Source: Bacilli bacterium
GTDB lineage: Bacteria > Bacillota_I > Bacilli_A > ML615J-28 > CAG-313
Assembly: GCA_035362935.1 (NCBI GenBank)
Contig: DAOSEC010000008.1
Location: forward strand, 12,823 to 76,822
Reading direction: 5' to 3'
DNA: 64,000 bases
In this document: piece after piece, positions 8,326 through 44,953 of the stretch
Position numbering within the stretch: position 1 is the stretch's first letter
Layout of the letters: every line of letters starts with the position of its first letter
The notes under the pieces: model-generated
Database searches by the model: none
The model's input: the letters and a program-made list of their open reading frames with translations, nothing else
What the model was told of the DNA's origin: nothing
Position numbers and translations under genes: made by a program

Positions 8326-9591
8326 TTACCCCAATAACTTTCTTAATTGTTCTTTCAAAACAGAATCTTCTACTGCTTCGATTAAATCTTTTGGATAGTA
8401 CACGCGAACCTCTTCTTTGCGAGCTGCATCGATCAAGGCATTGACAATTTTGGAATAGTCTTTTAGTTCCTTGATTGTACCATCTTCTAGTAAAATCTTA
8501 ATCCCACTTGCCTTTTCAATTGCGAAATTTGAGTTATAAACAATTTGTGCTAAGTTATCACTTTTTAAATAGTATGTTGTGCTAATCCCGGCCTTTTTCA
8601 TTAACTCTTTGATTTGTTGGTATTGTGTTTCTACATTACCAACTAGTAGCTTATCTTTAAATAGTTTTCTAGATAACAACCGATTAGATAAATCCTTTAG
8701 AATGAAATCATCACTAAAGCGAAACTCTGAAATCATTGTTGTAATTAAGTAATCATCTAGCATCAAATAATCATCCAGCACAACACTACCTTCTTGCATA
8801 ATTTTGACTAGATACTTTGCTACTCCATCAAATACATACCCTTGATGATAGAGTACTTTGATCCGTTTGTATATCTTGTCTAACACGATTTCAAAACTGC
8901 GCCCGACTGGATGAAAGTACACTTGCCAATACATGTTATATCTACTCATTAAATAGTCTTCAATCGCATGAACACTAGATGCTTTGTGTACAATTTCTTT
9001 GTTTTTTATTCTCATCGTTCGAATGATGCGATCAACATCAATCTCACCATAGGTTGCTCCTGTAAAATAAGCATCTCTTGCTAAATAATCAAGTCTATCA
9101 ATGTCCAATTGACTTGAAACAATTCCTTCAAGCAAAGGAAACTTACCATCTTTTTTTATGATAGAAACCAAATCAGCAGGTAGGTCCGGATTGGCTTCTT
9201 TTAGTACTTTAGAAACATCTGTTTTCTCTAAGATAACTCTAGTTGAAAACTCTTCATGATCAAATTCAAACGCATCTTCAAATGCATGAGAAAATGGACC
9301 ATGACCGATGTCGTGAAGCAAGCTTGCTGCGTAAAGCAACTTAACTTCATATTCGCTTAATGCTTCTTGTAATCCTTCTACCTCTCTTATAAGACGTACA
9401 GCATTTTGATAAACCCCCAAACTATGAGAAAATCTTGAATGTTCAGCGGTGTGAAATACTGCACTGACTCCACCAAGTTGATGAATTCGTTTTAATCGTT
9501 GAAATTCTTTTGTATTAATGATATTCCAAACAAGTTCATCACTTACGGTGATATACCCGTAAATTGGATCTCTAAATACCTTCTTTTCCAT
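8326..9591 (-). CDS. HD-domain phosphohydrolase (dNTP triphosphohydrolase-like)
   Basis: 421 aa. HD motif …HSRFSHSLGV…LLHDIGHGPFSH…. Confidence 0.8.
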   Translation of the reverse strand: MEKKVFRDPIYGYITVSDELVWNIINTKEFQRLKRIHQLGGVSAVFHTAEHSRFSHSLGVYQNAVRLIREVEGLQEALSEYEVKLLYAASLLHDIGHGPFSHAFEDAFEFDHEEFSTRVILEKTDVSKVLKEANPDLPADLVSIIKKDGKFPLLEGIVSSQLDIDRLDYLARDAYFTGATYGEIDVDRIIRTMRIKNKEIVHKASSVHAIEDYLMSRYNMYWQVYFHPVGRSFEIVLDKIYKRIKVLYHQGYVFDGVAKYLVKIMQEGSVVLDDYLMLDDYLITTMISEFRFSDDFILKDLSNRLLSRKLFKDKLLVGNVETQYQQIKELMKKAGISTTYYLKSDNLAQIVYNSNFAIEKASGIKILLEDGTIKELKDYSKIVNALIDAARKEEVRVYYPKDLIEAVEDSVLKEQLRKLLG

Positions 9592-10555: not shown

Positions 10556-12166
10556 CTACTTTTTCCCTTCAATCGCGTGTTTGATAAAATCTTTGAATAA
10601 TGGATGTGGCTTATTCGGTCTAGATAAGAATTCTGGATGAAATTGACATCCAACAAACCATGGGTGATTGCTTAATTCCATCATCTCAACAAGACTAGTT
10701 TGTGGGTTAATTCCACTAACCACCATACCAGCGTTTTCAAATTGTTCTTTAAACTGATTGTTAAACTCGTAACGATGTCTATGTCGTTCCTTGATCTCAT
10801 CGACTCCGTAAGCTTCATACGCTTTTGTTCCTGGTTTGATGATGCAATCATAGAGACCTAAACGCAGTGTCCCACCAATGTTAATTCCTTCGTATTGATC
10901 AGGTAAGTAATCGAAGATTGGATATGGAGTATTTGGATCAAATTCAGTCGAACTTGCGTGGTCTAAACCTAATACATTTCTTGCATATTCTATCATCGCT
11001 ATTTGCATCCCTAAACACAATCCTAAGTATGGAACGAGCTTGGTTCTTGCATATTCTGCTGCTAAGATTTTCCCCTCAATCGCACGCGGTCCAAATCCAC
11101 CAGGCACTAAGATACCACTTACATCATCTAGTTCTTCGGATATGTTATTTAATGTCAATGTTTCTGCATCTACAAACTTGATATGAACCTTATGATTGTG
11201 ATAAATTCCTGCGTGTTTGAGTGATTCCGAAACCGATAAATAAGCATCTGGTAATTCCACATATTTTCCAACAATCGCAACCTTAACTTGTTTTTTAATT
11301 GCTTTGATTCGTTTGATCAAATCATTCCATTCACTCATTTCAAGTGGAGCGGTTTCTAATTCAAAGTGGTTACATATATATTCGTCTAGTCCTTGTCGAG
11401 CAAATCCACTTGCAACTTCATAGATAACATCTACATCTCTTGCTTCAATGATCGCTTTTTCGTTGACATCACATAGAAGTGCAATCTTATCTTTTTGATC
11501 TTGAGGAACTTCAACTTCGGTTCTTAAAATAATCACATCTGGTTGAATTCCTAAACTTCTTAATTCTTTGACTGAGTGTTGTGTTGGTTTGGTTTTTATT
11601 TCTCCAGCAGCCTTTAAGAAGGGAACAAGTGTTGTATGAATATACATCGTATTGTGGAAACCATAATCACGTCTTGTTTGGCGAATTGCTTCTAAAAACG
11701 GTAAACTTTCGATGTCTCCTACGGTTCCACCAATTTCAGTAATGACAACATCAGCTTCACTTGAAATCGCAGCTTTTTGTAAATATCGTTTGATTTGATT
11801 TGTGACATGGGGAACAACTTGGACGGTAGACCCTAAATATTCACCACGACGTTCTTTTTCGATGATTTTTGAATATATTTTTCCAGTGGTTACGTTAGAA
11901 TATTTGCTTAAGTTTTCATCGATAAAACGTTCATAGTGACCTAAGTCGAGATCGGTTTCCGCACCATCGTTGGTCACAAATACTTCACCATGTTGATATG
12001 GTGACATTGTGCCTGGATCATAATTCAAATACGGATCAAATTTAAGCATAAATACTTTTAATCCTCTATTTTTTAATAACCTTCCAATGCTTGCTGCTGA
12101 AATTCCTTTTCCTAAACTCGATACAACTCCACCAGTAACGAATATAAATTTTGTCTGTTTCCCCAT
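10556..12166 (-). CDS. pyrG: CTP synthase
   Basis: Start taken at [22 protein letters not shown]. The glutamine amidotransferase C-terminal region has the GxCLG active-site motif (GLCLGMQ). Confidence 0.95.
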
Positions 12167-13997: not shown

Positions 13998-14026
13998 AAA
14001 GAAAAAGCCTATTTCTAGGCTTTTAT
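13998..14026. terminator. hairpin terminator at the rpoE 3' end
   Basis: aaaaagcct-atttct-aggctttt, flanked by an A-tract and a T-tract. Confidence 0.55.
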
Positions 14027-14559
14027 CGTTTTGATAATTCTTCTTCAATGTCGTCAGAGTCTTCTTCAACTTCATCTTCTTCTAAGTCTAGGACGACTTC
14101 TCGAATCTCATCGCTATCTTCATCTTCGTCGGTATCATCCGTTAATCCAAGTTCTAATGCGATGTCGTCGGTTTCTTCTTCTTCGGTATCATCTTCATCG
14201 ACATCATCTTCATCGACTGTTTCAAACGTTGGATAAGTAACACCATCGCGCAACTCATTCTTTAATACATCTTCGTCATCGGAATAAATGTCATCAAAGT
14301 CACCACCATCTTTATCAAGCATCGCTACTGGTTGTCTTTCTTTTAAGTCCCAAAGCGAATCTCCACAAAAAACAAAGTGTCCGCTCATCATAAAATCCAA
14401 ATAAAATTGAGAAACAATTTCTACGTATTCTGAATCCGTATATTTTTTGTTTTTCAAAAGTTCTTTCAAAATCGAGTCGATTGAAAGTGGTTCGTGTTTT
14501 CGTTGTTTTTTAAATAGTTCTACTGCTCGTTCTAGCAGTGATCCATCTTTTATAGCCAT
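14023..14559 (-). CDS. rpoE: DNA-directed RNA polymerase delta subunit
   Basis: 178 aa. N-terminal HARE-HTH-like domain followed by a long poly-acidic tail (DEDDVDEDDTEEEETDD…), the diagnostic architecture. pyrG lies nearby, as in Bacillus. Confidence 0.85.
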   Translation of the reverse strand: MAIKDGSLLERAVELFKKQRKHEPLSIDSILKELLKNKKYTDSEYVEIVSQFYLDFMMSGHFVFCGDSLWDLKERQPVAMLDKDGGDFDDIYSDDEDVLKNELRDGVTYPTFETVDEDDVDEDDTEEEETDDIALELGLTDDTDEDEDSDEIREVVLDLEEDEVEEDSDDIEEELSKR

Positions 14560-14632: not shown

Positions 14633-15040
14633 TTATTGGTTTTGTACAAATGTATACTTTACTACAAGTTTGTGATATCGTTTGTTCGTTTCACCGACTT
14701 CGGTTTCATAGATAATCGTTAAGGTGTGGTCTTCGAATTGAATCAAATTTGTTGAAGTTGACATCGAGACTTCTAAACCAAAGTTTGTTGTCAAATGCAT
14801 GTTTGTGATTTGACCTTCGATAAACTCTTGTTCCATCGTTATATCACCACTGCGTTTTACAAACACACGGTTTGGATATATATATATGTTTGTTCGTACT
14901 TTTGCTTCAAGCTCTTCAGTAAATTCGAGTTCTTTGTGATCTTCATAAACGTGATAGTCACCTAAGGAATAGTATTCAATTTCCGTGCCATCGCTGATAT
15001 CCATTTTAAAGTGTACTTCAACTGCCTGTTTCATAGTCAC
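14633..15040 (-). CDS. hypothetical beta-rich protein (DUF1934/YwiB-like)
   Basis: 135 aa. Size and conservation pattern fit DUF1934. The assignment is tentative. Confidence 0.45.
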   Translation of the reverse strand: MTMKQAVEVHFKMDISDGTEIEYYSLGDYHVYEDHKELEFTEELEAKVRTNIYIYPNRVFVKRSGDITMEQEFIEGQITNMHLTTNFGLEVSMSTSTNLIQFEDHTLTIIYETEVGETNKRYHKLVVKYTFVQNQ

Positions 15041-15054
15041 CTCTTCAATATCGA

Positions 15055-15786
15055 TTATTTTCTTGTGGATAGTTCTTTTATCTTTTTATAATCTGTTCGG
15101 TCGTTTGTGAGTGGAGTAATGGAAATGTATCCATTCAAATAACTCATAACATCACCTTCTAGATCGTCTAATTTGGTTTTGCGATCTGGTTCACCAACCA
15201 TGTAATGTAATCCGTCCACGAGCTTGAAAATCGTTTGTGTTGCATTTTTCGTCTGATGTGTTATTTTGATACCGGTTGGATTTGAAGGTATGTTGATATT
15301 GTAAAACTGATTGGAATGCAACATGTGATTTTTTTGCATATAATCCATAATGGTTGTGAAGTTTTGTTTGAGCGCTTCTATGTTGCCTTTTGCAACTGAC
15401 AATGCAACTCCAACAGCTCCAAGCATCACACCTTCTGCAGCGCCGGCAACCGTTCCAGAATACATGACGTCATCTGCCATATTTAATCCATCGTTTGCTC
15501 CAGAGAATACCAAATCAAAGTCATATTTTAATGCAACTTTCGCCACCTTTACACAGTCAGCTGGTGTTCCATCTAAACTATAAGTTTTTACTCCTGGAAC
15601 AATATCTTCAAGTTGTTGTAATTTAAGACCATGACGAATTGTAATCGAATGTGATACGGCAGATTTTTCACTGCTTGGTGCGACAACCAATAAATCAACT
15701 TCATAGTCTGTTAAGCATTCAACGAGTGCTTTGATTCCTTTTGAGTGGACGGAATCATCATTTGTCACTAATACTTTTTTTCTCAT
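15055..15786 (-). CDS. surE: 5'/3'-nucleotidase SurE
   Basis: 243 aa. N-terminal VLVTNDDS…G motif and SGANDG…YSGTV motif. Confidence 0.85.
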   Translation of the reverse strand: MRKKVLVTNDDSVHSKGIKALVECLTDYEVDLLVVAPSSEKSAVSHSITIRHGLKLQQLEDIVPGVKTYSLDGTPADCVKVAKVALKYDFDLVFSGANDGLNMADDVMYSGTVAGAAEGVMLGAVGVALSVAKGNIEALKQNFTTIMDYMQKNHMLHSNQFYNINIPSNPTGIKITHQTKNATQTIFKLVDGLHYMVGEPDRKTKLDDLEGDVMSYLNGYISITPLTNDRTDYKKIKELSTRK

Positions 15787-16751
15787 AACAACTCCGGATT
15801 TTTTTGTTTGAATTCTTTTAATTTTTCATCTGCTAATTGTAACAATTCTTTGACTTCTTTGTTGTTATACATCGTAGCTCCTGCTGCTTGTAGGTGACCT
15901 CCACCTCTAAATTGTGAAGCAATGTCATTGATTGCTAAAAAGCGGGAACGAAGACGACCCCTAATCTCTCCATTTGGCTGATCAATAAACGCAATCCAAA
16001 TGAGTGATCCTTTGATGGAATCAATCGTATTTACCATATTTCCTGCTTCGTCTGGTGTTACACCAAATTTCTTTTGTGTTCTTTTTGTAAACCGAATATA
16101 GACAACTCCATTTGGAGTCATCTTGAAATTTTTATAAACAAACCCTTGTAATTTTAACGATTCTTTGTCTTTTAAATACAAAGATGAATATAGTTTTTCT
16201 AAGTCTATTTCTTTGTCTAATAATACACTCGCATTACGTAATACATCGCCACTTACTCCGCGGTAACGGAAACGCCCCGTGTCTGTTACAATTCCAAAAT
16301 ATAATGCATAAGCAGCTTCATATGGCAATTTTAAGTCTTCATCAAAATCATTGTAAAATCTTGCGAGTAACGCACTACAAGATGGACTCTTATTATCAAC
16401 AAAATTAATGTTTCCAAAATCCTCTGAATCATCGTGGTGATCAATCTTAATGACAAACTTTCCTTTTTGCCAATTATCGTTTTGAATGCGCTTTGCGTTT
16501 GATGTATCGACTACAATCACCAAAGCATCTTCATAAACCGATTCTTCCACCTCATCCATCGTTGCGAATCCTCTTAAGTATTCTGGAATTTCATCTCCAC
16601 CAACAGCGTAAATTTTCTTTTCTGGAAACGATGCTTGAAGCATATGTTTTAATCCCATTTGACTTCCAATGCAATCACCATCTGGTCTTACGTGTCTGTG
16701 GATAATAATGGTTTGAAATTCTTTTATTTTATTTAATATTTCTTGTGTCAT
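15783..16751 (-). CDS. nrnA: DHH-DHHA1 phosphoesterase, NrnA-type (nanoRNase/pAp phosphatase), copy 1
   Basis: 322 aa. HRHVRPDGD, DHHDD and C-terminal GGGHLQAAG motifs. Confidence 0.85.
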   Translation of the reverse strand: MTQEILNKIKEFQTIIIHRHVRPDGDCIGSQMGLKHMLQASFPEKKIYAVGGDEIPEYLRGFATMDEVEESVYEDALVIVVDTSNAKRIQNDNWQKGKFVIKIDHHDDSEDFGNINFVDNKSPSCSALLARFYNDFDEDLKLPYEAAYALYFGIVTDTGRFRYRGVSGDVLRNASVLLDKEIDLEKLYSSLYLKDKESLKLQGFVYKNFKMTPNGVVYIRFTKRTQKKFGVTPDEAGNMVNTIDSIKGSLIWIAFIDQPNGEIRGRLRSRFLAINDIASQFRGGGHLQAAGATMYNNKEVKELLQLADEKLKEFKQKNPELL

Positions 16752-16754
16752 TTG

Positions 16755-17693
16755 TTACACCCCTTTTGCTAATTGATTTAGATCTTCAATCATAGCGTCA
16801 ACAACTTCCCAACTTTCTACATTTGCTCCACTTGCTAACTTATGACCACCGCCACCATATTTGGTTGCAATTTCATTGATGTTTGCACCATTTGATCTTA
16901 GCTCTACCCATATCTTACCGGCTTCACTATCTTCTGTGAAATTTGCCCAAATATTGATTCCTTTAATCCCTGCCATAATATTCACCATGCCTCTTGAAAT
17001 AGTGAAGATATCAATGCCATAGGTTTTTACTTCTTCTTTGGTATTTTTTAATACTCCAACACCACTTGATGTGACAATAAATTTTTGCGTTAATGCGGCT
17101 CTTAGTTTAACAATTTCTAAGTCTTCTGAATATAAATTCATATATATACTTTCCAAATCAATTTTTTCTTTTAATAAATAACTTACCAAAGAAAATGTTC
17201 GGTCGGTTGTAGAAGCATATCGGAATCGCCCAGAATCCGTTACTATTCCTGTGAACAAAGACGAAGCTGCTTGTTGATTTAGTTTGAGCCCTGTTTGATA
17301 AAAGAAATCAGCAATGAGCCCCGCACACGATTCATACGATGTATCGACAAATTTTATATTTCCAAAACCTGTTTTTTCAATATGATGATCCATTTTAATC
17401 ACAAACTTAGCAAGCTTATATCGTTCATCACTAATCATAAATTCTTCCGCAACATCAAGGACAATTGCCAGTGCATTTGGATAAATGGAATCCTCTACAA
17501 TATCCATTTCTCCCATGAACTTTAATCGTTCATTCATATCACCAACAGCAACAATCAATTTATCTTTAAAATTTTCAATTAATCCATACTTTAATCCTAG
17601 TTGACAACCAAGCGCATCTCCATCAGGACGACTGTGTCTATGAATAATAATCGTATCAAATTCTTTAATTTTTTGTAATATTTCTTTAAACAT
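16755..17693 (-). CDS. DHH-DHHA1 phosphoesterase, NrnA-type, copy 2 (tandem paralog)
   Basis: 312 aa. HRHSRPDGD, DHH and GGGHKLASG motifs. Clearly homologous to the adjacent gene. Confidence 0.85.
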   Translation of the reverse strand: MFKEILQKIKEFDTIIIHRHSRPDGDALGCQLGLKYGLIENFKDKLIVAVGDMNERLKFMGEMDIVEDSIYPNALAIVLDVAEEFMISDERYKLAKFVIKMDHHIEKTGFGNIKFVDTSYESCAGLIADFFYQTGLKLNQQAASSLFTGIVTDSGRFRYASTTDRTFSLVSYLLKEKIDLESIYMNLYSEDLEIVKLRAALTQKFIVTSSGVGVLKNTKEEVKTYGIDIFTISRGMVNIMAGIKGINIWANFTEDSEAGKIWVELRSNGANINEIATKYGGGGHKLASGANVESWEVVDAMIEDLNQLAKGV

Positions 17694-17751
17694 GAGTTTC
17701 CTCCTACGATTATTTGATTATAGCATAATTATGAAAATTTCTCAAATCATT

Positions 17752-18252
17752 TTAATCATCCATTTGGCCCTTACATAACCGTTCTGCTTTGTATAAATCA
17801 TTGGTGTATAACATATTATCTGCGTAAATTGGTCCAACTCTAGCATAACCTAATCTTACTAAATTATAATTGAGTAGTTCACCATCAACCCATATCCAAG
17901 CAAGCAGACGTTTAAATCCAGAAAAGTCTCTTAACTTATCAAATGGATCGGTTTGCAAATATATATCTTTTGCGTTTGATAAAATCTTTTTTGTATATTC
18001 GGTTGCTTCTTTCCCACCAAATTGGACTGAAAATCTATTATGTTCCGGTGTATCAATATTAAAGAACCGAACGTGTTCGATAATTCCATCTACTAAAAAA
18101 GCAGCTGTGTCTCCATCAACAGGAAATTCAAAACTTACCTTTAGTGCACCACCTAATGGTTTCCCTTGTCGATCAGACCAAAACGGTCTACTCTTAAATT
18201 TATTTGCTAGTCTTGGTCCATCATATATATATGTTTTACGTAGTTCATTCAT
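17752..18252 (-). CDS. SNase-like (thermonuclease-family) protein without signal peptide
   Basis: 166 aa. DGDT…NIDTPE…RLLAWIWVDGELLNYNLVRLGYARV matches the staphylococcal-nuclease fold. No N-terminal hydrophobic segment. Confidence 0.7.
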   Translation of the reverse strand: MNELRKTYIYDGPRLANKFKSRPFWSDRQGKPLGGALKVSFEFPVDGDTAAFLVDGIIEHVRFFNIDTPEHNRFSVQFGGKEATEYTKKILSNAKDIYLQTDPFDKLRDFSGFKRLLAWIWVDGELLNYNLVRLGYARVGPIYADNMLYTNDLYKAERLCKGQMDD

Positions 18253-18299
18253 AATAGTTAATCACCTTTCGTTCATTATAACATATTATGTTTGACAAT

Positions 18300-18335
18300 C
18301 AAAAAAGAAAGAACATATATTTGTTCTTTCTTTCG
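18300..18335 (-). terminator. rho-independent terminator
   Basis: aaagaaagaaca-tatatt-tgttctttcttt hairpin with a U-tract on the minus strand, downstream of the 100-aa membrane protein gene. Confidence 0.55.
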
Positions 18336-18342
18336 TATGGCA

Positions 18343-18645
18343 TTATTTGTTCTTCTGCTTTTCTTTCGCCCAAATAAGAAGTGAGGAAACAAGTGTTCCA
18401 ATAAAAAACAACCCCGTCAATGAACCATACAAAAAATATCCAAGTGCACCCCAACCATCTGTTATAAAGGCCAACCCCCAAAAGATTGCGGATGCAACAC
18501 CAGAAACTATAGGAACAAAGAATGTTAACTTCTTGCTTATCTTTAACAATATTTTCGTAACACCAAATCCAATAAGACCACCCACAAAGATAAACACGAT
18601 AACTGTCAAAATTTCTGTAACAATGTTTGGATACATATCCAACAC
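18343..18645 (-). CDS. small membrane protein (3 TM)
   Basis: 100-aa hydrophobic ORF. Confidence 0.45.
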   Translation of the reverse strand: MLDMYPNIVTEILTVIVFIFVGGLIGFGVTKILLKISKKLTFFVPIVSGVASAIFWGLAFITDGWGALGYFLYGSLTGLFFIGTLVSSLLIWAKEKQKNK

Positions 18646-18711
18646 CTCCTACATCTATTTACACCTTGATTATATCTTTTTTTTAGAGATATTCCATAAA
18701 AACGATAATAT

Positions 18712-18754
18712 AAAAATGCACTTGATTGGATTGCTCCTTTCAAGTGCATTTTTA
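18712..18754 (-). terminator. rho-independent terminator after the 925-aa lipoprotein gene
   Basis: atgcacttga-(15 nt)-tcaagtgcat stem with flanking A- and T-tracts. Confidence 0.6.
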
Positions 18755-18779: not shown

Positions 18780-21557
18780 TTATTTCCAAGTATAAAGTCT
18801 AGCATCTGAGAAGTTTTGAGCATTCACAATCCATTGATCCCAATTGTTTGTTGCACTTGGTCCCATGAACTCTGGTTTTCTTATTAATGTTTTATCAAAT
18901 GTATATAATGATTCCCAAGCTGTTGAAGTACCTGATGCTGCGACATATGGTTCACCGAAGATACCAATAACATCAATCAAAGCACCATCTTTTAATAAAG
19001 TAACAACGTCTCCACCTTGACCATTGAATGCAATGGCTTCTTGTGTAGTTGAGTTATAAACGATAGAAATGACAGTGTGACCTGCTGCAGTAGCTTCTGC
19101 TAATCTTGCTAAAATTGCTGTGTCAGCTGCTTGTGAACTATGGAGAATTAATGACTTACCATGAGCTAATTCACCAGTTAATGCAACACCCCAGAATTTT
19201 GTTAAGTCAGTAACGCCTGTAATACCATTTGATTCTACAGCGGCATTATTAAATGATCCTAAACGATATCCTGTTAATGTAACAGTTGCACCTGTATTAT
19301 TGTAGATCGCGATTACTTTATTGTTAGATGAACCCTCAATATAGTAAGAAATAAACAAATCAGTTGCATATGTTGGAGCTTCTTCAGGAATAACAACGAT
19401 TGTTACAACTTGAGTTACAGCTTCTGCTGTTCCAACAGTGATTGTTGCTGTTAAAGTGATTGATTTGTTTTCTGTTACAGTTGCTAGAGTTCCTTCAGGT
19501 AATGTAATTAAACCTGCATTATCTCCACTTGCTGCCCAGCTAATTGTACCACCATAAACTGCGCTAGTTGTTGGTAATACAACTGTTGATCCCATATTGT
19601 ATTCTTTGTTATCAAATGCTGCTACTAACTCATCTTGAACTGCTTCTGCTTTTTCAGCATCAGTCATTTCAACTAAATTAATTTGATCTGGATGTCCAAG
19701 AGCGATTTGAGGTCCATTAAACCATCCAATGGTTGCTCCTTCAATTGTAACTTCATTACCAGCAGATAATGTTCCCATCTTAGTATTGATTTCGGTTAAG
19801 TTAGCTAATCTTGAATCTACTCTTAATGTAATGTCTGCAGTACCATTTGTTAATACTACGTTATACCCTGATGTAGAAACAGTAAATGCATCTTTAATAG
19901 TAAATCCGTAAAGATTAATTTTCTTAGCTTGTAGTGGAAGTAAAGTTGTTGCATCTACGGCTGTAATTGTTTCAGCAGCTACTACATTGTTTTGAGAAAT
20001 AACTGTTTTTGAAACAACAAATTCAATTTGATGTAATCCATTAAATGCGTTGTATTGTCCAACAACTTGAACTTTCGCACCAACTACATAATCAGCTACT
20101 GCATTTGCTAAGTCTGTTCCTGATAAACCATAATATACTACGATTCCACCAGTATTATCTTGGATATAAATATTACGTCCTACAACGTTTGTTACAACAC
20201 CTTCAACCATTACGAATGTTCCAACTGCTGTTGATTTTACCGCGTTGATTGTACTTAATTCAACTGGTTTAACCGTGATTGTTACTGTAACTTCTTCGCT
20301 TATTTCACCAACAGTAACGGTTGCTACTAAAGTAACATTTGTATCAGCAGATACGTTTCCTAATTTACCGTTTGTTAAGTTAATAACACTTGCGTTATCT
20401 CCTGTTGCTGCCCACGCGATTGTTGCGTTGAATGATGTGTTTTCTGTCGGAAGTGTTAATGTTGCACCAGATACACGGTTGATATTGTTAAATTGAGATG
20501 TTAACAATGTAGCAACTGCATCTGCTTTTTGTTGATCTGAAAGTTCTGGAGCATCAATTTCAACGATAGAACCTTCTGTTGGTGTATAATCTACTGACCA
20601 ACCAGGAATACGAGTATCATAGTAGTAAACTGAAATACGAATACGTACAAACTTATCGATAAATGCATTTAATCCTGATGCATTTGGATTTGCAGTTGTG
20701 TCTGGTTCATATGTTCTGTAATAAATTTGAATTTCTTTTGCTGTAAATGGATCTTGAATAAAGTAGTCTTTATTTGATCCTGATACTTTTTGGATTAGCT
20801 TACCTTCAACTACATTTAAGTCACCTTGAATAGCAGCACTTGTTGGTGCTTCACTTGCTATTGCATCGACTGTTTTTGGAGTTGGAGTCGGAAGTGTGTT
20901 TCCACTTGATACTTTAACAATACCAACTGTACCACCAATTTGAGGTGCTCCAAAATAAACAGCACGTTTACCAGTAACTCTTACTAAGTCACCTAGTGCA
21001 ACTGTAGTATGTGCTGCGAACACAAAGATTCCACCAGTTGAGTCAGAAATAAAGAATCCTGAGAATCCGCTGTTGAATTTTGCAAATACAACACCTTCAG
21101 TTTCCACATCCGCATTAAGAGCAGCTGCTTTCACTTCTGCAATTGTTTGTGTTGTTACATCTGGTAATGCTCTAACACGTACTGTAAATTCTTTCGTGTC
21201 AGTAATTGTCTTTGTTGTTTTTCCATCCATGTATTGAATGGTTAACGTTGCTGTAATTTTGACAGTTTTGTCTCCTTCAGCGAACACTGGTCTTGTAACA
21301 ACACCTGTATTAGAAATATATGCAGGGCTGTCAGTTTCCCAAGTAATGGTAACATCATGTCTTCCTTCTGCAAGGAATTCAATGTTGTTAACAATATTGC
21401 TCATATCAGCAATAATAAGTGATGTCTTTGCTTCTTCAAGTAATGCTCTTGCTTGTTCTTCTGCCGCTTTATCTGTACATGCAGTTAATGCGATTCCAAA
21501 GAAGAAAATAGCAACTAGACTAAACAATCTTTTCAGATTGAGTTTGGATAATACCAT
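18780..21557 (-). CDS. large surface lipoprotein: 3 Ig-like repeats, 2 OB-fold nucleic-acid-binding-like domains, C-terminal lamin-tail (LTD) domain
   Basis: 925 aa. Lipobox LTAC. Three repeats of T(I/S)WxxxGDNAxxIxL…xTATxTVG. Two segments of the form VxGVVTxVxxxxxYIQDxTGGIxVY (OB-fold, as in extracellular nuclease N-terminal domains). C-terminal YYIEGSSNNKVIAIYNNTGATVTLTGYRL is LTD-like. Strong GGAGG RBS. Confidence 0.7.
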   Translation of the reverse strand: MVLSKLNLKRLFSLVAIFFFGIALTACTDKAAEEQARALLEEAKTSLIIADMSNIVNNIEFLAEGRHDVTITWETDSPAYISNTGVVTRPVFAEGDKTVKITATLTIQYMDGKTTKTITDTKEFTVRVRALPDVTTQTIAEVKAAALNADVETEGVVFAKFNSGFSGFFISDSTGGIFVFAAHTTVALGDLVRVTGKRAVYFGAPQIGGTVGIVKVSSGNTLPTPTPKTVDAIASEAPTSAAIQGDLNVVEGKLIQKVSGSNKDYFIQDPFTAKEIQIYYRTYEPDTTANPNASGLNAFIDKFVRIRISVYYYDTRIPGWSVDYTPTEGSIVEIDAPELSDQQKADAVATLLTSQFNNINRVSGATLTLPTENTSFNATIAWAATGDNASVINLTNGKLGNVSADTNVTLVATVTVGEISEEVTVTITVKPVELSTINAVKSTAVGTFVMVEGVVTNVVGRNIYIQDNTGGIVVYYGLSGTDLANAVADYVVGAKVQVVGQYNAFNGLHQIEFVVSKTVISQNNVVAAETITAVDATTLLPLQAKKINLYGFTIKDAFTVSTSGYNVVLTNGTADITLRVDSRLANLTEINTKMGTLSAGNEVTIEGATIGWFNGPQIALGHPDQINLVEMTDAEKAEAVQDELVAAFDNKEYNMGSTVVLPTTSAVYGGTISWAASGDNAGLITLPEGTLATVTENKSITLTATITVGTAEAVTQVVTIVVIPEEAPTYATDLFISYYIEGSSNNKVIAIYNNTGATVTLTGYRLGSFNNAAVESNGITGVTDLTKFWGVALTGELAHGKSLILHSSQAADTAILARLAEATAAGHTVISIVYNSTTQEAIAFNGQGGDVVTLLKDGALIDVIGIFGEPYVAASGTSTAWESLYTFDKTLIRKPEFMGPSATNNWDQWIVNAQNFSDARLYTWK

Positions 21558-21599: not shown

Positions 21600-22844
21600 T
21601 TAGTTATGAAAAGTGATATCGTTAAACGATCCTAATAATAGTTGGTATTGACCACTATAAACCCCAATCGGAGCTACAATATCAATATTTTTCCCATTAA
21701 AGTATTCCCAAGTTCTTATTCTATTGTCTTGTGGTGCTGGTATGCTTAAATCGCGAATCGCAATATCAGAAGCAACACGCACTTCAATTGTATTGTTTTG
21801 TGAATCACGAATTCGGAACGTAAATGCATTGTTTGCAGAATCATATCCGCTATAAACAGTAACATTTTCTAATTTTACAAATCTTCCCGATATCGTTGGG
21901 TTTGTTGTGCGATTCAATTCACTAATTGTCATAACCGTTGGAACGACTTCATTTCCTGTTGATAAGACAGTAATTTTTGAATCACGAGTATCTGTAATTT
22001 GTGGTGCACCTGTTTCTTGATCTGGATGGTATACCATAGTTCCTTCGATACGAAGTTCAAACCCAACTACAAGTTTTTGTAATTGTGTAAATCCTGCGTA
22101 TACATAGATACCATAGCATCCGGTTTCTCCAGAACAATCTTCAACATATGCACTAAATCCTAAGACTCTAGTCACAATACCTACGACTGCAACTTTTTTA
22201 TTTGCATACTCGGCCTCGTTTGTTCTTAGTTCTTCAAGTGTGACTTGAGTCCCTTCAATTGAATAATTAAATCCAGGGTCTTGTTCTCCCCAAATGCGTT
22301 TTCCTTTGGTTTGAGTTCTCATATCCGCATTGAAGATAACTTCTGCGTATTTAGATCCACTCGCACCTTTTGAGGTTGTAAACGATTCTTCAATCAGTTC
22401 TAAATTTAACAACTTTCCATCAACCCATACCCATGCAAGGTATCTTGTTCCTGTAGAATCAAGAACTGGTTGATTTCCCTCTGCTTCTAATACGATTTTA
22501 GTCGCATTGTTTAATCGGTTAGCTGTATAATCTGAGGCTGCTTTTCCCCACGGGTCAATACGGTATGTTGATTCTGGGGTATCAATACCTAAGAATCTTA
22601 CACGGAATGGTTGACTGGTTGCTGTTTTGAACATTGCTGTATCACCATCTGCGACACTTACAAGTGTAACCTCACCAATACCATGTAAAAAGAAATCTTT
22701 CCCAGTATAATCTCTTTCAAGAGTTGTTCGATTGGTATAATAATGGATCTCCCATTCTTCTTCCCCTGGTTTATTATCACAAGCAGTTAAACTAAATGAG
22801 AATATACCTAGTAGAAGTAGAAGTATGAATTTTTTAAGTTTCAT
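21600..22844 (-). CDS. SNase-family (thermonuclease) surface lipoprotein with C-terminal extension
   Basis: 414 aa. Lipobox LTAC. SNase motifs VADGDTAMF…RFLGIDTPE…RYLAWVWVDGKLLNLELI. Confidence 0.8.
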   Translation of the reverse strand: MKLKKFILLLLLGIFSFSLTACDNKPGEEEWEIHYYTNRTTLERDYTGKDFFLHGIGEVTLVSVADGDTAMFKTATSQPFRVRFLGIDTPESTYRIDPWGKAASDYTANRLNNATKIVLEAEGNQPVLDSTGTRYLAWVWVDGKLLNLELIEESFTTSKGASGSKYAEVIFNADMRTQTKGKRIWGEQDPGFNYSIEGTQVTLEELRTNEAEYANKKVAVVGIVTRVLGFSAYVEDCSGETGCYGIYVYAGFTQLQKLVVGFELRIEGTMVYHPDQETGAPQITDTRDSKITVLSTGNEVVPTVMTISELNRTTNPTISGRFVKLENVTVYSGYDSANNAFTFRIRDSQNNTIEVRVASDIAIRDLSIPAPQDNRIRTWEYFNGKNIDIVAPIGVYSGQYQLLLGSFNDITFHN

Positions 22845-22847
22845 TGA

Positions 22848-24161
22848 TTACCAAACCAATTCGTTGATTGCATCAGCGTAAGCTTGATCGATAGTTTTTC
22901 CACCATATAGAACAGCTCTGATTAATGATTGTGATTCATCACGTGCAAGTGAAGATCCTGGGAATGCTGCTGATGTAAAGAACTTGTCTCTTTGTCCGTA
23001 ACCGATGGTAGCACTCTTAACAAAAATACTATCCGGATTTGCTAAGAATGTTGCATAAGTTGGATGAGTATATGCGCTTTCGCGTACTGGGAAGTATGCT
23101 GTTGATGCTGAGAAGTATGCTGTTTCTGCAGTTGAAGTTAAGAACTTAACAAACAACCAAGAAGCTAAGCGTTGATCATCTGTTGCATTAGAGAAAATAG
23201 TAACGTTTGTCCCTTGTTGAATAACAGCTGGAACTGCTCCTGCTCCATCATATTGAGGGATTGGTGCTACTCCTACTTCGAATGCAGTTGTATTATTGTG
23301 TTGTGCTCCTGCACTTGATCCAACAGTCATATAGATTGTTTCTGCTTTGAATACGTCAGATGCATAGTTTGCACCATCAAAATGAGTTGGTGTTGCAGCT
23401 AAGCGGTCTGTGTATAAATCTTTAAAATAAGTAACAGCTGCTTTTGATTGAGCGTTGTTAAATAAAATTTCTCCATTCACATTTGTGTATTGTCCGCCCC
23501 ATTGTTGTGTCAATGTAATGAAAAGGTTCGCTTCTGAATCGTATGCAAAACCTACTTTTCCGTTTAATGTTTTGATTTGTTGAGAAACGGTTCTAACCTC
23601 AGCCCAAGTTGTTGGAACTGTCAAAGAATTTTGATCAAAGAACGTTTTGTTATAAAACATTACTTCAGTTGATTTGTTAAATGGTAATGAATAATAGGTA
23701 CCCGCTTCATCATAGATGGTTCCTTCAGCTAAGAATGATGGAACAAAATCATCTAAATCCGCTTGTGTAAACCCATGAGTTGCATTTTCCATATATTTAT
23801 CTAAAGGTAATACTGCTCTACCTTGTAAATATACAGCCACATGGTCTGGATATGTTTGAGCAATGTTCGGCTCTGTTCCTGCAGAAATTGCTTTTGTAAT
23901 CTTGTCACGTAAGTCTGTGTATCCACCTTGTCCTGCTTGGATTACTGTAACATTTGGATAAATTACATTAAATCTGTCAATAATGTCTTGGATATATCCT
24001 TGGTTTGCTTGACCCATCGCATGCCAGAACGTGATGGTAATCGGGTCAGTTGTAAGTTGGTCTGGAATAACAATTTCGCGGTCTTTTAAATTTGTGTTTC
24101 CGCAACCTGCTACTACAAACATTGCAACTAGAACGACTAATAAACTTAACAGTTTTTTCAT
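22848..24161 (-). CDS. ABC transporter solute-binding lipoprotein, CUT1 (sugar-type, family 1)
   Basis: 437 aa. Lipobox VAGC. ITFWHAMG signature of family-1 solute-binding proteins. Confidence 0.85.
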   Translation of the reverse strand: MKKLLSLLVVLVAMFVVAGCGNTNLKDREIVIPDQLTTDPITITFWHAMGQANQGYIQDIIDRFNVIYPNVTVIQAGQGGYTDLRDKITKAISAGTEPNIAQTYPDHVAVYLQGRAVLPLDKYMENATHGFTQADLDDFVPSFLAEGTIYDEAGTYYSLPFNKSTEVMFYNKTFFDQNSLTVPTTWAEVRTVSQQIKTLNGKVGFAYDSEANLFITLTQQWGGQYTNVNGEILFNNAQSKAAVTYFKDLYTDRLAATPTHFDGANYASDVFKAETIYMTVGSSAGAQHNNTTAFEVGVAPIPQYDGAGAVPAVIQQGTNVTIFSNATDDQRLASWLFVKFLTSTAETAYFSASTAYFPVRESAYTHPTYATFLANPDSIFVKSATIGYGQRDKFFTSAAFPGSSLARDESQSLIRAVLYGGKTIDQAYADAINELVW

Positions 24162-24215: not shown

Positions 24216-25088
24216 TTAGCCTTTAATACCGCTTCTTGATACCCCTTGCATAATGTATTTACGCAAGAACAAGAATACGAGTAATAATGGAACTGTAACC
24301 ACTGTGGTTGCAGCCATTTGTAAATGAATTTGTGAACGACCTTGATCGTCAGTGAATGCTTTTCTCAATCCGTTTGTAATCAAACGCATCGAATCGCTAT
24401 CTGCTACTAGATTTGGCCAAATGTATGCATTCCATGAACCAATTAATTTTAGAATGGTAATTGATATAATGGTTGGCATTGCGATTGGAACCATAACACG
24501 TAGTAGATACTTGAAGTCTCCTGTGCCATCGACTTTCGCTGCTAAATATAATTCATTTGGTATTTGCTTGAAGTTTTGTCTTAATAAGTAGATATAAAAT
24601 ACACTGACAACGAATGGAATAATGAGGGCTTGATAGGTATCAATCCATCCCAATCTAGCAACTGTAATGTAGTTTGTAATAACCATCATTTCCCCTGGAA
24701 TCATCATCGTTGCTAAGAACAAAGTAAATAATATGTTTTTACCTTTGAACTCAAGTCGAGCAAACGCGAATGCTGCAAAAATTGTTGTAACAACGGTACC
24801 AACCGTAGAGACCACACCTACAAAAATTGTGTTGTAGATATATCGTGCAAAATCGGCTTGCATCATTGCATTTGGGAAATTTTGGAAATTTAATAATTGT
24901 GGGAATAGTGTAGGTGGAATCATTTCTGTTTCTGCTTGAGTTTTTAAAGCAGAGATAATCATCCAATAAAACGGAACGACAACGATAATTGCCATAATAC
25001 CTAAGAAACCATATACTAGAATATTTTTTAAAATTAATTCTACTTTATATGATTTTTCTAAATTTTTAACATTCATTTTTTCTGTCAT
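24216..25088 (-). CDS. ABC transporter permease (MalG-like)
   Basis: 290 aa, 6 TM. EAA-loop-like LAAKVDGTGDFKYLLRVMVP. Confidence 0.85.
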   Translation of the reverse strand: MTEKMNVKNLEKSYKVELILKNILVYGFLGIMAIIVVVPFYWMIISALKTQAETEMIPPTLFPQLLNFQNFPNAMMQADFARYIYNTIFVGVVSTVGTVVTTIFAAFAFARLEFKGKNILFTLFLATMMIPGEMMVITNYITVARLGWIDTYQALIIPFVVSVFYIYLLRQNFKQIPNELYLAAKVDGTGDFKYLLRVMVPIAMPTIISITILKLIGSWNAYIWPNLVADSDSMRLITNGLRKAFTDDQGRSQIHLQMAATTVVTVPLLLVFLFLRKYIMQGVSRSGIKG

Positions 25089-25098
25089 AGCGCACCTC

Positions 25099-26007
25099 CT
25101 AGTAATGTACCCGTTTTTTACTGATGTACAAGTTGATGAAGGTGAAGATCAAGATGATCACGAAGAGGAATAACGCAGCTGCGGCTGCCCATCCTGCCGA
25201 CCCTTCTCCAACACGGGGGTCACTCAAACTTCGATATAGGAACCATACTATGGTACCAATTCCTTTGTCGCGAATGCTAGTATCTAGTCCGAATAACGCA
25301 ACAACTGATGTATACTCTTTAAACGCTCCGATAAATGATGTTACAGCAACATAGGCAATCATTGGAGAAAGAAGAGGAACTGTAATTCTTGTGAATACTC
25401 GAACTCTTGGTGTTGAGTCGATTTGAGCTGCTTGATAATATTGTTTATCAATCCCTTGCAAACCACTTAAGAAAATTAGAATCTTAAACGGAAGTGCTTC
25501 CCACACGGAATAAATTAACAACACTGTCATTGCTCTACCCCAACCTGCTCCGTATCCTACCCAGTTAATTGCATTGTCAAGTCCTAACCAACCAATAATG
25601 GTATTGATAAGTCCATAACTTTGATTAAACATAACCGCAAATACCATCCCAATCGCGATTGTATTTGTAACGTATGGTAAGAAGAAAATAGTTTGGAATA
25701 CTTTTTGTAATGGCTTAATGGAGTTTAGTCCAACAGCGATTAACAACGATAACATTATAGATATTGGAACAGATACAAACACGATAAAGAATGTGTTGGA
25801 TACTGTTCTCCAGAATATTTGATTTCGGAATATGAAGGCAAAGTTACCAAATCCGAATTGAGTGAACTCACCTGTCATATAATTGTATTTTTCTTTAAAC
25901 GCGATTAGAATCGTATTAAAGAGGGGATAGAAGATAAATATTGCCATTAATATTAGAGCGGGTGCTAAATATAACCAGGCCTTGAGGTTGTTTTTACTCT
26001 CAACCAT
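25099..26007 (-). CDS. ABC transporter permease (MalF-like)
   Basis: 302 aa, 6 TM. EAA loop YQAAQIDSTPRVRVFTRITVP. Confidence 0.85.
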   Translation of the reverse strand: MVESKNNLKAWLYLAPALILMAIFIFYPLFNTILIAFKEKYNYMTGEFTQFGFGNFAFIFRNQIFWRTVSNTFFIVFVSVPISIMLSLLIAVGLNSIKPLQKVFQTIFFLPYVTNTIAIGMVFAVMFNQSYGLINTIIGWLGLDNAINWVGYGAGWGRAMTVLLIYSVWEALPFKILIFLSGLQGIDKQYYQAAQIDSTPRVRVFTRITVPLLSPMIAYVAVTSFIGAFKEYTSVVALFGLDTSIRDKGIGTIVWFLYRSLSDPRVGEGSAGWAAAAALFLFVIILIFTFINLYISKKRVHY

Positions 26008-27068
26008 TACTTCATTCGCTCCTCGGTTTCTTTGTTAAATACGAAGCATTTATTTGGACGAATGTTTACTTTGATTACCCCGCTATTTGGAACTTCTGTA
26101 TCGGCATCAACAATACCTCTTAATGTGTGACCATCAAAATTAGGATGTTTTGCGATAATCGAAATGTCACGTCCTAAATGTTCAATAGATGCAACTTCGA
26201 TTGAAAGTTTTCCGTCTTTTTTAACGTCAAATCCTTCAGGTCGAATTCCAATTGTTACATCTTGATCTTTTGCTTTAAACGGTAATATTGCTTCATCACC
26301 AATGTATAGTTGATTGTCTTTGATTGAACCATTGAATAGGTTGATCGGTGGCGTTCCTAAGAACTTTGCAACGAATAAATTATCAGGATCGTCATATACA
26401 TGTTGTGGTTGACCTGTTTGTTGCATTAATCCGAGTTTCATAACTACGATATTGTCAGAAATACTCATTGCTTCTTCTTGGTCATGTGTAACGAAGATGG
26501 TTGTGATTCCCGTTTCTTTTTGGATACGACGAATTTCTTCACGTGTTTGTAAACGAAGTCTCGCATCTAGGTTAGATAAGGGCTCATCAAGTAACAACAC
26601 TCTTGGTTCTTTTACGAGTGCTCTTGCGATTGCAACACGTTGTTGTTGACCACCGGATAACTGTTTTGGTTTTCTTCCCATTAGATTTCCAATACCAACT
26701 AAATCAGCGTAATATTGCGCCTTTTTTAATGCTTCATCTTTTGGCATTTTCATGTTTTCAAGTGGAAACAAAATGTTTTGCTTTACTGTCATATGAGGGT
26801 ATAACGCATAGTTTTGAAACACAAGACCAATTCCTCGTTTTTCTGGTGGTGTTTTTGTAACATCCTCATCCCCAAAGAAGATTTCTCCTTCTGTGGGTTG
26901 TAGTAAGCCAGCAATCATATAGAGTGTTGTTGATTTACCACAGCCAGAAGGACCGAGTAGACCAATTAGTTTTCCTGATGGAATGGTGATGTCTAAATTA
27001 TCTACAGCACGAACCTCTGCATCTTTTTCCGAAAAAATCTTGGTCAATTTTTTCAATGTAATTTCCAT
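26007..27068 (-). CDS. ABC transporter ATP-binding protein (MalK/UgpC-type with C-terminal TOBE domain)
   Basis: 353 aa. Walker A GPSGCGKST, signature LSGGQQQRVAIARAL, Walker B LLLDEPLSNLD. Confidence 0.9.
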   Translation of the reverse strand: MEITLKKLTKIFSEKDAEVRAVDNLDITIPSGKLIGLLGPSGCGKSTTLYMIAGLLQPTEGEIFFGDEDVTKTPPEKRGIGLVFQNYALYPHMTVKQNILFPLENMKMPKDEALKKAQYYADLVGIGNLMGRKPKQLSGGQQQRVAIARALVKEPRVLLLDEPLSNLDARLRLQTREEIRRIQKETGITTIFVTHDQEEAMSISDNIVVMKLGLMQQTGQPQHVYDDPDNLFVAKFLGTPPINLFNGSIKDNQLYIGDEAILPFKAKDQDVTIGIRPEGFDVKKDGKLSIEVASIEHLGRDISIIAKHPNFDGHTLRGIVDADTEVPNSGVIKVNIRPNKCFVFNKETEERMK

Positions 27069-44946: not shown

Positions 44947-44953
44947 TGGTAAG

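Follow-up and report, generated by a model that had tools for sequence, protein, structure and literature searches.

A run of nucleic-acid-degrading enzymes encoded side by side in an uncultured bacterium raises the question of whether it forms one catabolic operon or is composed of several elements. The stretch of DNA that we analysed, here called the window, comprises 64,000 nt from a Bacilli bacterium (contig DAOSEC010000008.1, positions 12,823 to 76,822), and the genes in question lie on its minus strand between 15055 and 18252. They encode a staphylococcal nuclease homologue (SNase) without export signal, two tandem phosphodiesterases of the NrnA type and the nucleotidase SurE. With a probability of roughly 0.6 we favour the reading that the locus is a composite of three elements, namely a core cassette (nrnA1-nrnA2-surE and the genes that follow it), an upstream foraging module consisting of an importer and surface lipoproteins, and a separately promoted leaderless SNase. 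A preliminary description had taken the four genes as a single tight catabolic operon; all four open reading frames (ORFs) and their identities were borne out. In the direction of transcription, the genes of the unit are as follows (aa, amino acids).

17752-18252, minus strand: SNase, 166 aa; PF00565, E 3e-11, 44.1 bits against a cutoff of 21.
16755-17693, minus strand: NrnA-1, 312 aa; DHH and DHHA1 domains, NCBIfam NrnA as best model; W-V-E-L-R replaces the R-x-R-x-R clamp.
15783-16751, minus strand: NrnA-2, 322 aa; DHH and DHHA1 domains; canonical I-R-G-R-L-R-S motif.
15055-15786, minus strand: SurE 5'/3'-nucleotidase, 243 aa; TIGR00087, 152.1 bits against a cutoff of 135.1; PF01975, E 1.7e-48.
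14633-15034 (ORF 14633-15040), minus strand: YwiB/DUF1934 beta-barrel protein, 133 aa from the ATG; PF09148, E 9.5e-9, 35.8 against 22.5 bits.
14023-14559, minus strand: RpoE, the RNA polymerase delta subunit; TIGR04567, score 56 above the cutoff of 42; final gene before the terminator.

The sequence of SurE contains the N-terminal DD metal motif VTNDDS as well as SGANDGLN. We observed that nrnA1 and nrnA2 are separated by 3 bp and that nrnA2 and surE overlap by 4 bp; a DUF1934-like gene follows surE, as had been described, at a distance of 14 bp, and another 73 bp lie between this gene and rpoE. Because the gap between SNase and nrnA1 amounts to 58 bp, tight packing is limited to nrnA1, nrnA2, surE and ywiB, and of the tight four-gene series proposed earlier nrnA1, nrnA2 and surE can be kept, while SNase stands apart. 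The gene order from SNase to DUF1934 is also present in a congener (L091/L092; homologous loci carry L numbers) and in three relatives with 74-79% identity, and since it is repeated in these genomes it is not a chance arrangement.

Next, we looked for signals that divide or join these genes. The sites given below, which include the small gene upstream of SNase, were identified as sequence pattern matches.

About 18711-18752, minus strand: terminator-like hairpin and T-run after the gene of a 925-aa lipoprotein; -22.9 kcal/mol, z -8.4.
18343-18636, minus strand: small protein with three transmembrane segments (3-TM), 97 aa from the ATG; no family match; upstream of SNase, a separate gene.
18303-18334, minus strand: intrinsic terminator-like hairpin between the 3-TM gene and SNase; 13-bp stem and T-run; -14.1 kcal/mol, z -5.6.
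18275-18302, minus strand: promoter-like site of SNase, TTGATT-16-TGtTATAAT.
17717-17745, minus strand: internal promoter-like site of nrnA1-nrnA2-surE, TTGAGA-17-TGcTATAAT; 11/12 matches, extended -10.
14003-14024, minus strand: terminator-like hairpin closing the unit after rpoE; -11.4 kcal/mol, z -4.1.

The hairpin at 18303-18334 is kept in L091, and a hairpin with T-run was found in all five relatives. The core of the SNase promoter, TATGnTATAAT, is kept in 4 of 5 clade members (in L007 the aligned sequence ended before the end of the motif), and the ATG of SNase is preceded by the ribosome-binding site AAAGGTGA. The best promoter match of the region lies in the 58-bp spacer between SNase and nrnA1. 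When we compared the 64 nt that run from the stop codon of SNase to the start of nrnA1 (17694-17757) with L091 we observed 100% identity, while the synonymous divergence (dS) of the flanking genes is 0.4-0.7; this identity despite diverged flanks therefore implies a strong constraint beyond the promoter hexamers. Within the spacer TGCTATAAT is invariant in five relatives, and both TGCTATAAT and the AGGAGG element are kept in relatives with ~75%-identical proteins. Between 18303 and 14024, that is from SNase to rpoE, no terminator-like site was found on the minus strand; of the internal promoter-like sites, the one before nrnA1 is strong and conserved, and a possible one precedes rpoE. From this arrangement SNase appears to be separately promoted and could read through into a unit of nrnA1-nrnA2-surE-ywiB-rpoE, which would have its own promoter. 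Riboswitch control was rejected, as the sole Rfam match was a T-box at 44.7 kb; this leader (44723-44949, minus strand, 113.9 bits, E 2e-24) is located upstream of a 460-aa ORF at 43302-44684.

To what extent the cassette exists independently of its neighbours can be read from other genomes. On three long contigs (L093-L095) an orthologue of NrnA-1 (57-60%) is followed by NrnA-2 (48-57%), SurE (40-48%) and RpoE. The order in L094 and L095, both from 'Bacilli bacterium' metagenome-assembled genomes (MAGs), is HIT-HpreDiP-DHH-DHH-SurE-RpoE (HpreDiP denoting heptaprenyl-diphosphate synthase), and near the cassette of these two loci there is no nuclease, importer or DUF1934. We further scanned metagenomes and obtained 80 loci with NrnA-1 orthologues, for which each feature was counted over the loci where it could be assessed. 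Downstream of the NrnA-1 orthologue there is another DHH gene in 54 of 55 loci and SurE in 24 of 39; RpoE is found nearby in 15 of 30 and DUF1934 in 4 of 30. As the second DHH gene is so constant, the tandem NrnA pair is ancient and nearly universal in this group, and not a local duplication. Judged by this gene order, nrnA1-nrnA2-surE(-ywiB)-rpoE is a predicted core operon, old and widespread among uncultured low-GC Bacilli. The earlier proposal of one catabolic operon is thus only partly supported: nrnA1, nrnA2 and surE form a packed unit, but SNase has a promoter-like site of its own behind a terminator-like hairpin, and the unit mostly occurs without nuclease or importer.

The genes directly upstream encode the foraging module, again in the direction of transcription (ABC, ATP-binding cassette).

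26007-27068, minus strand: MalK-like ABC ATPase, first gene of the module; PF00005, E 8.7e-38, and OB_MalK.
25099-26007, minus strand: ABC permease 1; PF00528; syntenic in L015, L028, L046, L058 and others.
24216-25088, minus strand: ABC permease 2; PF00528; syntenic.
22848-24161, minus strand: solute-binding lipoprotein of the SBP_bac_8 type (sugar/glycerophosphate), 437 aa; PF13416, E 1.2e-40; lipobox VAGC, hydropathy 3.17.
21600-22844, minus strand: surface lipoprotein with SNase domain and C-terminal OB-like region (DUF5689), 414 aa; PF00565, E 2.9e-10; lipobox LTAC.
18780-21557, minus strand: 925-aa lipoprotein with three aBig_2 domains, a lamin-tail domain (LTD) and an ExeM/NucH N-terminal-like region; lipobox LTAC.

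No nuclease catalytic domain was detected by domain scans in the 925-aa lipoprotein, which may capture or hold nucleic acid instead of cutting it. Orthologues of the ATPase with 55-63% identity head the same module in loci of Haloplasma, Izemoplasmatales and Clostridia, and the order of the module recurs in Haloplasmataceae, Izemoplasmatales, Christensenellaceae, Vallitaleaceae and other MAGs. Of 11 assessable lineages in which a binding protein is encoded upstream, 10 have an NrnA gene after that of the SNase lipoprotein, compared to 0 of 4 lineages without the binding protein. In Haloplasmataceae the place of SurE after the NrnA pair is taken by an MBL-fold hydrolase and a calcineurin-like phosphoesterase, which looks, from their position, like a non-orthologous replacement of the last step. 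In one Haloplasmataceae MAG (L015, 12559-14294) the MBL-fold hydrolase gene comes first and the calcineurin-like phosphoesterase gene is translationally coupled to it. An intracellular processing of imported oligonucleotides, as suggested in the preliminary description, is plausible insofar as it concerns the link to uptake, with the importer and two lipoproteins directly upstream and the contrast of 10/11 versus 0/4.

These distributions also bear on a purely housekeeping role, according to which the cassette would only clear endogenous nanoRNA and/or linear or cyclic dinucleotides (for example pApA or c-di-AMP, with one paralog as a DhhP/PdeM-type enzyme) and its neighbours would be an accident of genome history. 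The cassette has its own conserved promoter, and L094, L095 and 25 of the 32 metagenome loci with at least 5 kb of upstream sequence have it together with rpoE/pyrG but lack a nuclease or importer. This last count weighs against our own reading, because with so many loci free of the module its adjacency to the cassette may be lineage history. Furthermore, of the two adjacent NrnA paralogs of M. bovis one acts as a plain nanoRNase and the other as a phosphodiesterase of cyclic dinucleotides (PMC7373297). On the other hand, the importer and SNase-lipoprotein module does lie upstream of nrnA1 in 7 of the 32 loci, in L093 and in the window clade; the adjoining pairs (window clade, L093, L100-102, L108, L117, L122, L158) belong to several lineages that share only ~50-60% protein identity, and in L126 and L162 module and cassette lie close to each other in convergent orientation. 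A single NrnA after the same module in the 10 of 11 unrelated cases from Clostridia, Izemoplasmatales and Haloplasma, and the other phosphoesterases (MBL-fold, calcineurin-like) that Haloplasmataceae put in SurE's place, likewise speak against an accidental neighbourhood, and a B. subtilis-type NrnA did not cleave c-di-AMP (PMC9757072). We therefore consider a housekeeping role alone unlikely, though it is a serious contender.

Two observations on gene content are added here. Two genes beyond pyrG, with an EamA-type gene between, the same co-directional array contains a further gene of the nucleotide economy, encoding a 421-aa protein with HD and HD_assoc_2 domains (a dNTP triphosphohydrolase-like architecture; window 8326-9591, minus strand; L091 15444-16709). 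L093, a relative in which the full locus is present, also encodes BofA and a YabG-like protein (Peptidase_U57) nearby (11691-11873 and 16875-17651), and since these are sporulation-associated families its lineage may be spore-forming rather than wall-less.

We then examined the NrnA pair. The two proteins are paralogs, as had been recognized, with 43% identity over 307 aa (E 2e-78). Both are stand-alone DHH + DHHA1 proteins with DxD, DHH and GGGH motifs, and neither contains a transmembrane, PAS or GGDEF region or a signal peptide. Their best solved structures are B. subtilis NrnA and S. haemolyticus SH1221; the match to B. subtilis NrnA is the top one for NrnA-1 (E 7e-58) and comes just behind SH1221 for NrnA-2 (E 1.6e-63). 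The paralogs differ in the R-x-R-x-R clamp for the 5'-phosphate (R262/R264/R266), which is present in NrnA-2 (IRGRLRS) and not in NrnA-1 (IWVELRS), where Trp and Glu occupy the positions of R262 and R264 of B. subtilis NrnA. Glu at the R264 position was found in 120 of the 120 best NrnA-1 homologues, which have 55-96% identity to NrnA-1 and are all nearer to it than NrnA-2 is (43%), whereas the NrnA-2 orthologues of L093-L095 read IRVRLRS or IRVRIRS. The single NrnAs of importer/SNase-lipoprotein loci in other lineages have Glu or Asp at this position. In the pAp complex of B. subtilis NrnA, both R262 and R264 contact an oxygen of the substrate 5'-phosphate, and the double mutant lost its activity on short substrates (PMC5593865); Weiss et al. 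reported that dinucleotides without 5'-phosphate do not compete for NrnA binding (PMC9757072). With the clamp arginines lost, NrnA-1 therefore presumably takes a different substrate class. Two related ideas were rejected or weakened. A common origin of the tandem pairs of the window and of Haloplasma is contradicted by the monophyly of the four Haloplasma copies (100/100 bootstraps), so that the tree places the Haloplasma pair as independent, and an NrnA subclass specific to foraging loci was weakened by the finding that the Glu variant is the general NrnA-1 type and occurs without the module as well.

The third element is SNase. That this protein has no signal peptide, as previously stated, was confirmed by the ORF limits and by N-terminal hydropathy. 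For the assessment of the leader we used the ORF limits, inspected the sequence for lipobox and Cys and calculated Kyte-Doolittle hydropathy in windows of 15 residues. The ORF is maximal, with the in-frame stops TAA, TAA and TGA and the terminator hairpin between SNase and the upstream 3-TM ORF. There is no Cys or lipobox ahead of the fold, the first 45 residues are charged and Cys-free, and the peak hydropathy within the first 65 residues is 1.2 and falls within a beta strand. In comparison, the three neighbouring lipoproteins reach N-terminal values of 2.5-3.2 and 71 signal-bearing SNase homologues exceed 2.0. A gene split from or fused with the 3-TM ORF, which has the same frame, was ruled out, as three stops, a terminator and a promoter intervene and the TM gene, found in L010 and L091, is missing from L007-L009; genetic code 4 would not rescue such a fusion because two of the three stops are TAA.

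Besides lacking a leader, SNase has a complete active site. D48, R62, D67, T68, E70 and R115 align to D21, R35, D40, T41, E43 and R87 of S. aureus nuclease, of which D21, D40 and T41 are Ca ligands and R35, E43 and R87 catalytic; the position of Y113 (S. aureus numbering) is Pro in the leaderless clade. The phmmer match to staphylococcal nuclease chains has an E-value of 1.4e-15, and the scores lie under the cutoffs of the NCBIfam equivalogs for thermonuclease NucI (56 versus 250 bits) and EcnA (42 versus 180 bits). An AlphaFold2 model has a mean predicted local distance difference test score (pLDDT) of 90.5, including a well-ordered N-terminal extension of ~35 residues (pLDDT 94-98), and the top Foldseek matches are all S. 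aureus nuclease, with template-modelling scores (target) of 0.84-0.91 and root-mean-square deviations of 1.3-2.8. The preliminary description had named a catalytically dead protein as one case that would overturn its view; since SNase is leaderless and, as judged by alignment, keeps all catalytic and Ca-site residues, this objection falls away.

SNase is under purifying selection. The ratio of nonsynonymous to synonymous divergence (dN/dS) is 0.093 compared to the congener L091, inside the neighbours' range of 0.02-0.21, and ~0.15 compared to two relatives with 72-78% identity, for which dS is unsaturated. These values, the promoter and ribosome-binding site, the catalytic residues and the retention of the short architecture, with its ordered N-terminal extension (pLDDT 94-98), across at least 6 clusters at 50% identity contradict the idea that a lipoprotein SNase gene lost its 5' end and left the 166-aa gene as a functionless, decaying remnant. 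Relatives do hold a lipoprotein SNase of 327-498 aa in the same slot, and dS of SNase and of the small TM gene is above that of their neighbours; such a remnant is nevertheless hardly credible. In numbers, dS between the window and L091 is 0.68 for SNase, 0.61 for the small TM gene and 0.15-0.39 for flanking genes (region 17752-18645), which could reflect recombination or a locally different history.

How unusual the protein is became apparent from database searches. The leaderless family consists of 160-175-aa proteins whose first residue lies only a little ahead, by a few positions, of a conserved Y-x-G-P-x-L...P-F...G-G motif, which in longer relatives sits after the signal peptide or anchor. 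Among 1.84 billion cluster representatives we found six full-length clusters at 203-238 bits, with the remainder at or below 167 bits, corresponding to ~6 among 18,128 SNase-like clusters at 50% identity; the best match among GTDB species representatives has 51% identity (an Acholeplasmataceae MAG). When 89 homologues from species-representative genomes were screened for hydropathy, a clean gap separated 18 without hydrophobic N-terminus from 71 with one. The general-base Glu (E43 of S. aureus nuclease), kept in the window SNase, is replaced in 5 of the 18 leaderless proteins, all of one sub-branch, compared to 1 of the 71 signal-bearing ones. In this sub-branch (L001, L021, L022, L025, L083) S, K, R or Q is found instead and D40 is often N; its members may be inactive nucleic-acid-binding proteins, as the replaced residues suggest.

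The slot 5' of nrnA1 is variable: it is empty in L100-L102, L108 and L122, and holds a lipoprotein SNase of 327-498 aa in L158, L175, L015 and L040 (Haloplasma included); a leaderless SNase at this position is confined to the window clade and L093. In neighbour-joining trees the leaderless proteins grouped in 58 of 100 bootstraps, with the lipoprotein SNases occupying the slot in Haloplasma adjoining in 38 of 100, which suggests a possible origin from a lipoprotein SNase by loss of the N-terminus. From its distribution the leaderless SNase is best described as a lineage-specific, separately promoted addition beside the cassette. Elsewhere its contexts are different. About 10 of the 14 loci that do not belong to the window clade have the order htrA-SNase-ABC-F ATPase or htrA-ABC-F-SNase (L003-L006, L011-L014, L016-L019), at times with overlapping stops and starts, and in other loci the gene follows rluD; no ABC-F orthologue was found within the 64-kb window. 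In one lineage a 293-aa TIR_2-domain protein is encoded ~115 bp 3' of the leaderless SNase (L001 8626-9507, L002 1871-2752). An origin in anti-phage defence or a prophage was rejected, as PADLOC gave just a domain-level 'SNc+LTD' match and PHROGs just generic nuclease matches. Our search of the literature on EcnA, DUF1934 and leaderless bacterial SNases returned nothing useful.

If an active nuclease is kept in the cytoplasm, an inhibitor would be conceivable, and the preliminary description had named the DUF1934-like gene as the candidate, which would hold a dangerous SNase in check as in a barnase-barstar-like pair. In favour of this, the window clade and L093, which are the two lineages with a leaderless SNase at this place, both have DUF1934 within the transcription unit, and the gene is absent from L094 and L095, where SNase is absent too. 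However, the protein is an orthologue of YwiB, a widespread Bacilli protein (B. subtilis YwiB, PDB 1R0U, E 6.7e-10); its gene lies four genes from SNase and adjoins rpoE. In addition, tblastn, which has low sensitivity for a small protein, found no DUF1934 within 8-10 kb of ~14 other leaderless-SNase loci, and DUF1934 is present in L100-L102 and L122, loci without leaderless SNase. The co-occurrence and adjacency across genomes that mark an inhibitor gene are thus missing: each gene occurs without the other and the two do not adjoin in the window. Nor is an inhibitor logically required, because E. coli tolerates S. aureus nuclease without its leader, albeit with poor growth (PMC13522737). We regard the inhibitor as very improbable, and YwiB/DUF1934 as a probable housekeeping neighbour that is co-transcribed, as its position indicates.

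A different reading of SNase is latency. SNase could be a Ca2+-dependent enzyme that works only after membrane damage or lysis, scavenging nucleic acids of the dead cell for its kin, or after non-classical export. This would agree with the full Ca-site (D21/D40/T41 equivalents), with the finding that leaderless S. aureus nuclease, tolerated in E. coli, degrades DNA in lysed ghosts (PMC13522737), and with the fact that no inhibitor gene travels with the clade. Gating by Ca2+ is not assured, since the mycoplasma SNase homologue MAG_5040 uses Mg2+ and is inhibited by Ca2+ (PMC3585158); the loss of Glu in a leaderless sub-branch (5/18 versus 1/71) looks like an intracellular adaptation, and no secretion partner was found nearby. 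On balance we think latency quite unlikely and prefer a SNase that most likely acts inside the cell on oligo- or polynucleotides at low, controlled activity.

We base the following model of the composite locus on the observed gene identities, motifs, synteny statistics, conservation of promoters and terminators, and selection; the substrates, the import of phosphodiester-containing fragments and the cytoplasmic activity of SNase are what we infer. The surface nuclease would cut extracellular nucleic acid and the importer would take up the fragments. In the cytoplasm the cassette would convert short oligonucleotides to mononucleotides and nucleosides: NrnA-2 would be the canonical nanoRNase type with the 5'-phosphate clamp, NrnA-1 an old clamp-less paralog for another substrate class, and SurE would take 5' or 3' phosphates off mononucleotides. 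Most likely the cassette serves both endogenous RNA decay products and imported extracellular fragments; we propose this dual service because the foraging module lies directly upstream in this lineage.

Further points weigh against this reading. SNase-class enzymes (EC 3.1.31.1) leave 3'-phosphorylated products with 5'-OH ends. Canonical NrnA requires a 5'-phosphate (PMC9757072, PMC5593865), and because of these ends the SNase products should be poor substrates for it, whereas they fit the 3'-nucleotidase activity of SurE. The linear route from polymer over oligonucleotide and mononucleotide to nucleoside that had been drawn for the operon is therefore not a simple relay. As to the importer substrate, Wasmund et al. 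favoured nucleosides or bases (PMC8289736), and if only nucleosides are imported NrnA and SurE are unneeded for imported material. Both NrnA-1 (242.8 bits) and NrnA-2 (240.2 bits) stay under the cutoff of the NrnA equivalog NF053633 (350) and are thus better called NrnA-like. The promoters and terminators are pattern matches, and with low bootstrap support the lipoprotein origin of SNase is unproven. Moreover, S. aureus nuclease requires ~millimolar Ca2+, far above cytoplasmic levels. Overexpressing E. coli cells that tolerate the leaderless enzyme grow poorly (PMC13522737). For these two reasons an active SNase in the cytoplasm is not self-evident.

A more specific version of the model would remove the misfit of ends. 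The cassette could be a '3'-phosphate branch' of salvage, with NrnA-1 for 5'-OH fragments, SurE as 3'-nucleotidase, NrnA-2 as ordinary nanoRNase and the leaderless SNase as intracellular feeder. If true, surface and leaderless SNases would leave 5'-OH/3'-phosphate oligonucleotides that are matched by the clamp-less NrnA-1 type, a large NrnA subclass not described so far, in which a hydrophobic residue and a Glu stand at the positions of the clamp arginines. We put this forward as a speculation that is more probably wrong than right by a wide measure.

Extracellular DNA is a major source of phosphorus and nitrogen in sediments and guts. A nucleic-acid foraging locus and tandem NrnA paralogs have already been published; new, as far as the literature shows, are the clade of leaderless SNases, the wide occurrence of the nrnA1-nrnA2-surE-rpoE operon and the clamp-less NrnA-1 subclass. 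The composite reading would mean that the cytoplasmic end of foraging loci in free-living mycoplasma-like Bacilli is an old and very widespread operon, coupled in some lineages to importer and surface-nuclease modules, and not an ad-hoc set. Weiss et al. asked in 2022 whether NrnA subclasses with distinct substrates exist (PMC9757072), and the loss of the clamp in NrnA-1 of a nearly universal tandem pair would provide a concrete handle on this question. The leaderless clade, in turn, offers a small test case for the intracellular retention of a normally secreted non-specific nuclease. As a side observation from elsewhere in the window, the ORF of the clamp-loader tau/gamma subunit DnaX (28516-31398, minus strand) comprises 960 aa; Pfam assigns domains to no more than the ~360 N-terminal residues and leaves a long C-terminal part unassigned.

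Finally, we compared the locus with known systems. With S. aureus nuclease A (PF00565) SNase shares the fold and the Ca-binding and catalytic residues; it differs by having neither signal peptide nor anchor, which bacterial members typically possess although this does not strictly define the family, and by the ordered N-terminal extension of ~35 residues, which is common to its lipoprotein relatives. B. subtilis NrnA (PDB 5J21/5IUF) has the DHH, DxD and GGGH motifs in common with both paralogs and R-x-R-x-R with NrnA-2, but B. subtilis contains a single nrnA that is neither in tandem nor beside surE. Closer in arrangement are Mbov_0327 and Mbov_0328 of M. bovis, adjacent NrnA-type paralogs of different substrate range that are needed for nucleotide recycling (PMC7373297). 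As in the window, two stand-alone DHH/DHHA1 genes are neighbours in this wall-less relative of Bacilli. The M. bovis pair is divided into nanoRNase and cyclic-dinucleotide phosphodiesterase, whereas the difference in the window is the loss of the 5'-phosphate-binding arginines in NrnA-1, and SurE and rpoE are not reported for the M. bovis locus.

In mycoplasmas, operons of an SNase lipoprotein and a sugar-type ABC transporter (MAG_5040, Mhp379, Mpn133, MHO_0730) have been proposed to supply nucleic-acid precursors to salvage-dependent organisms (PMC3585158, PMC9740415). They resemble the window in that the genes of a membrane-anchored SNase homologue, a solute-binding lipoprotein and a sugar-like ABC importer lie together. 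However, in the mycoplasma operons the nuclease gene precedes those of the transporter, a conserved partner downstream is not reported and all nucleases carry lipoprotein signals. The nearest counterparts are the 'DNA-degradation loci' of Izemoplasmatales described by Wasmund et al. 2021 (PMC8289736) and Zheng et al. 2021 (PMC8397711), one of which responds to DNA with increased expression in the cultured strain zrk13 (PMC8397711). Compared to these, no phosphate transporter adjoins the locus in the window (a scan of the ORFs between 10.5 and 31.4 kb showed no Pst-like genes), a nuclease domain could not be detected in the LTD protein, two NrnA genes and surE are joined to a ywiB-rpoE housekeeping block, and there is the extra SNase without export signal, which PMC8289736 and PMC8397711 do not describe. 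The common features are extracellular nuclease genes, a large lamin-tail protein, an ABC transporter and 'phosphohydrolases / 3'-5' nucleases': the Izemoplasmatales locus L058, like L015 of Haloplasmataceae, has the order ATPase-permease-permease-binding protein-SNase lipoprotein-NrnA as in the window, where exported nuclease, LTD protein, ABC transporter and cytoplasmic phosphohydrolases are all encoded in one co-directional cluster.

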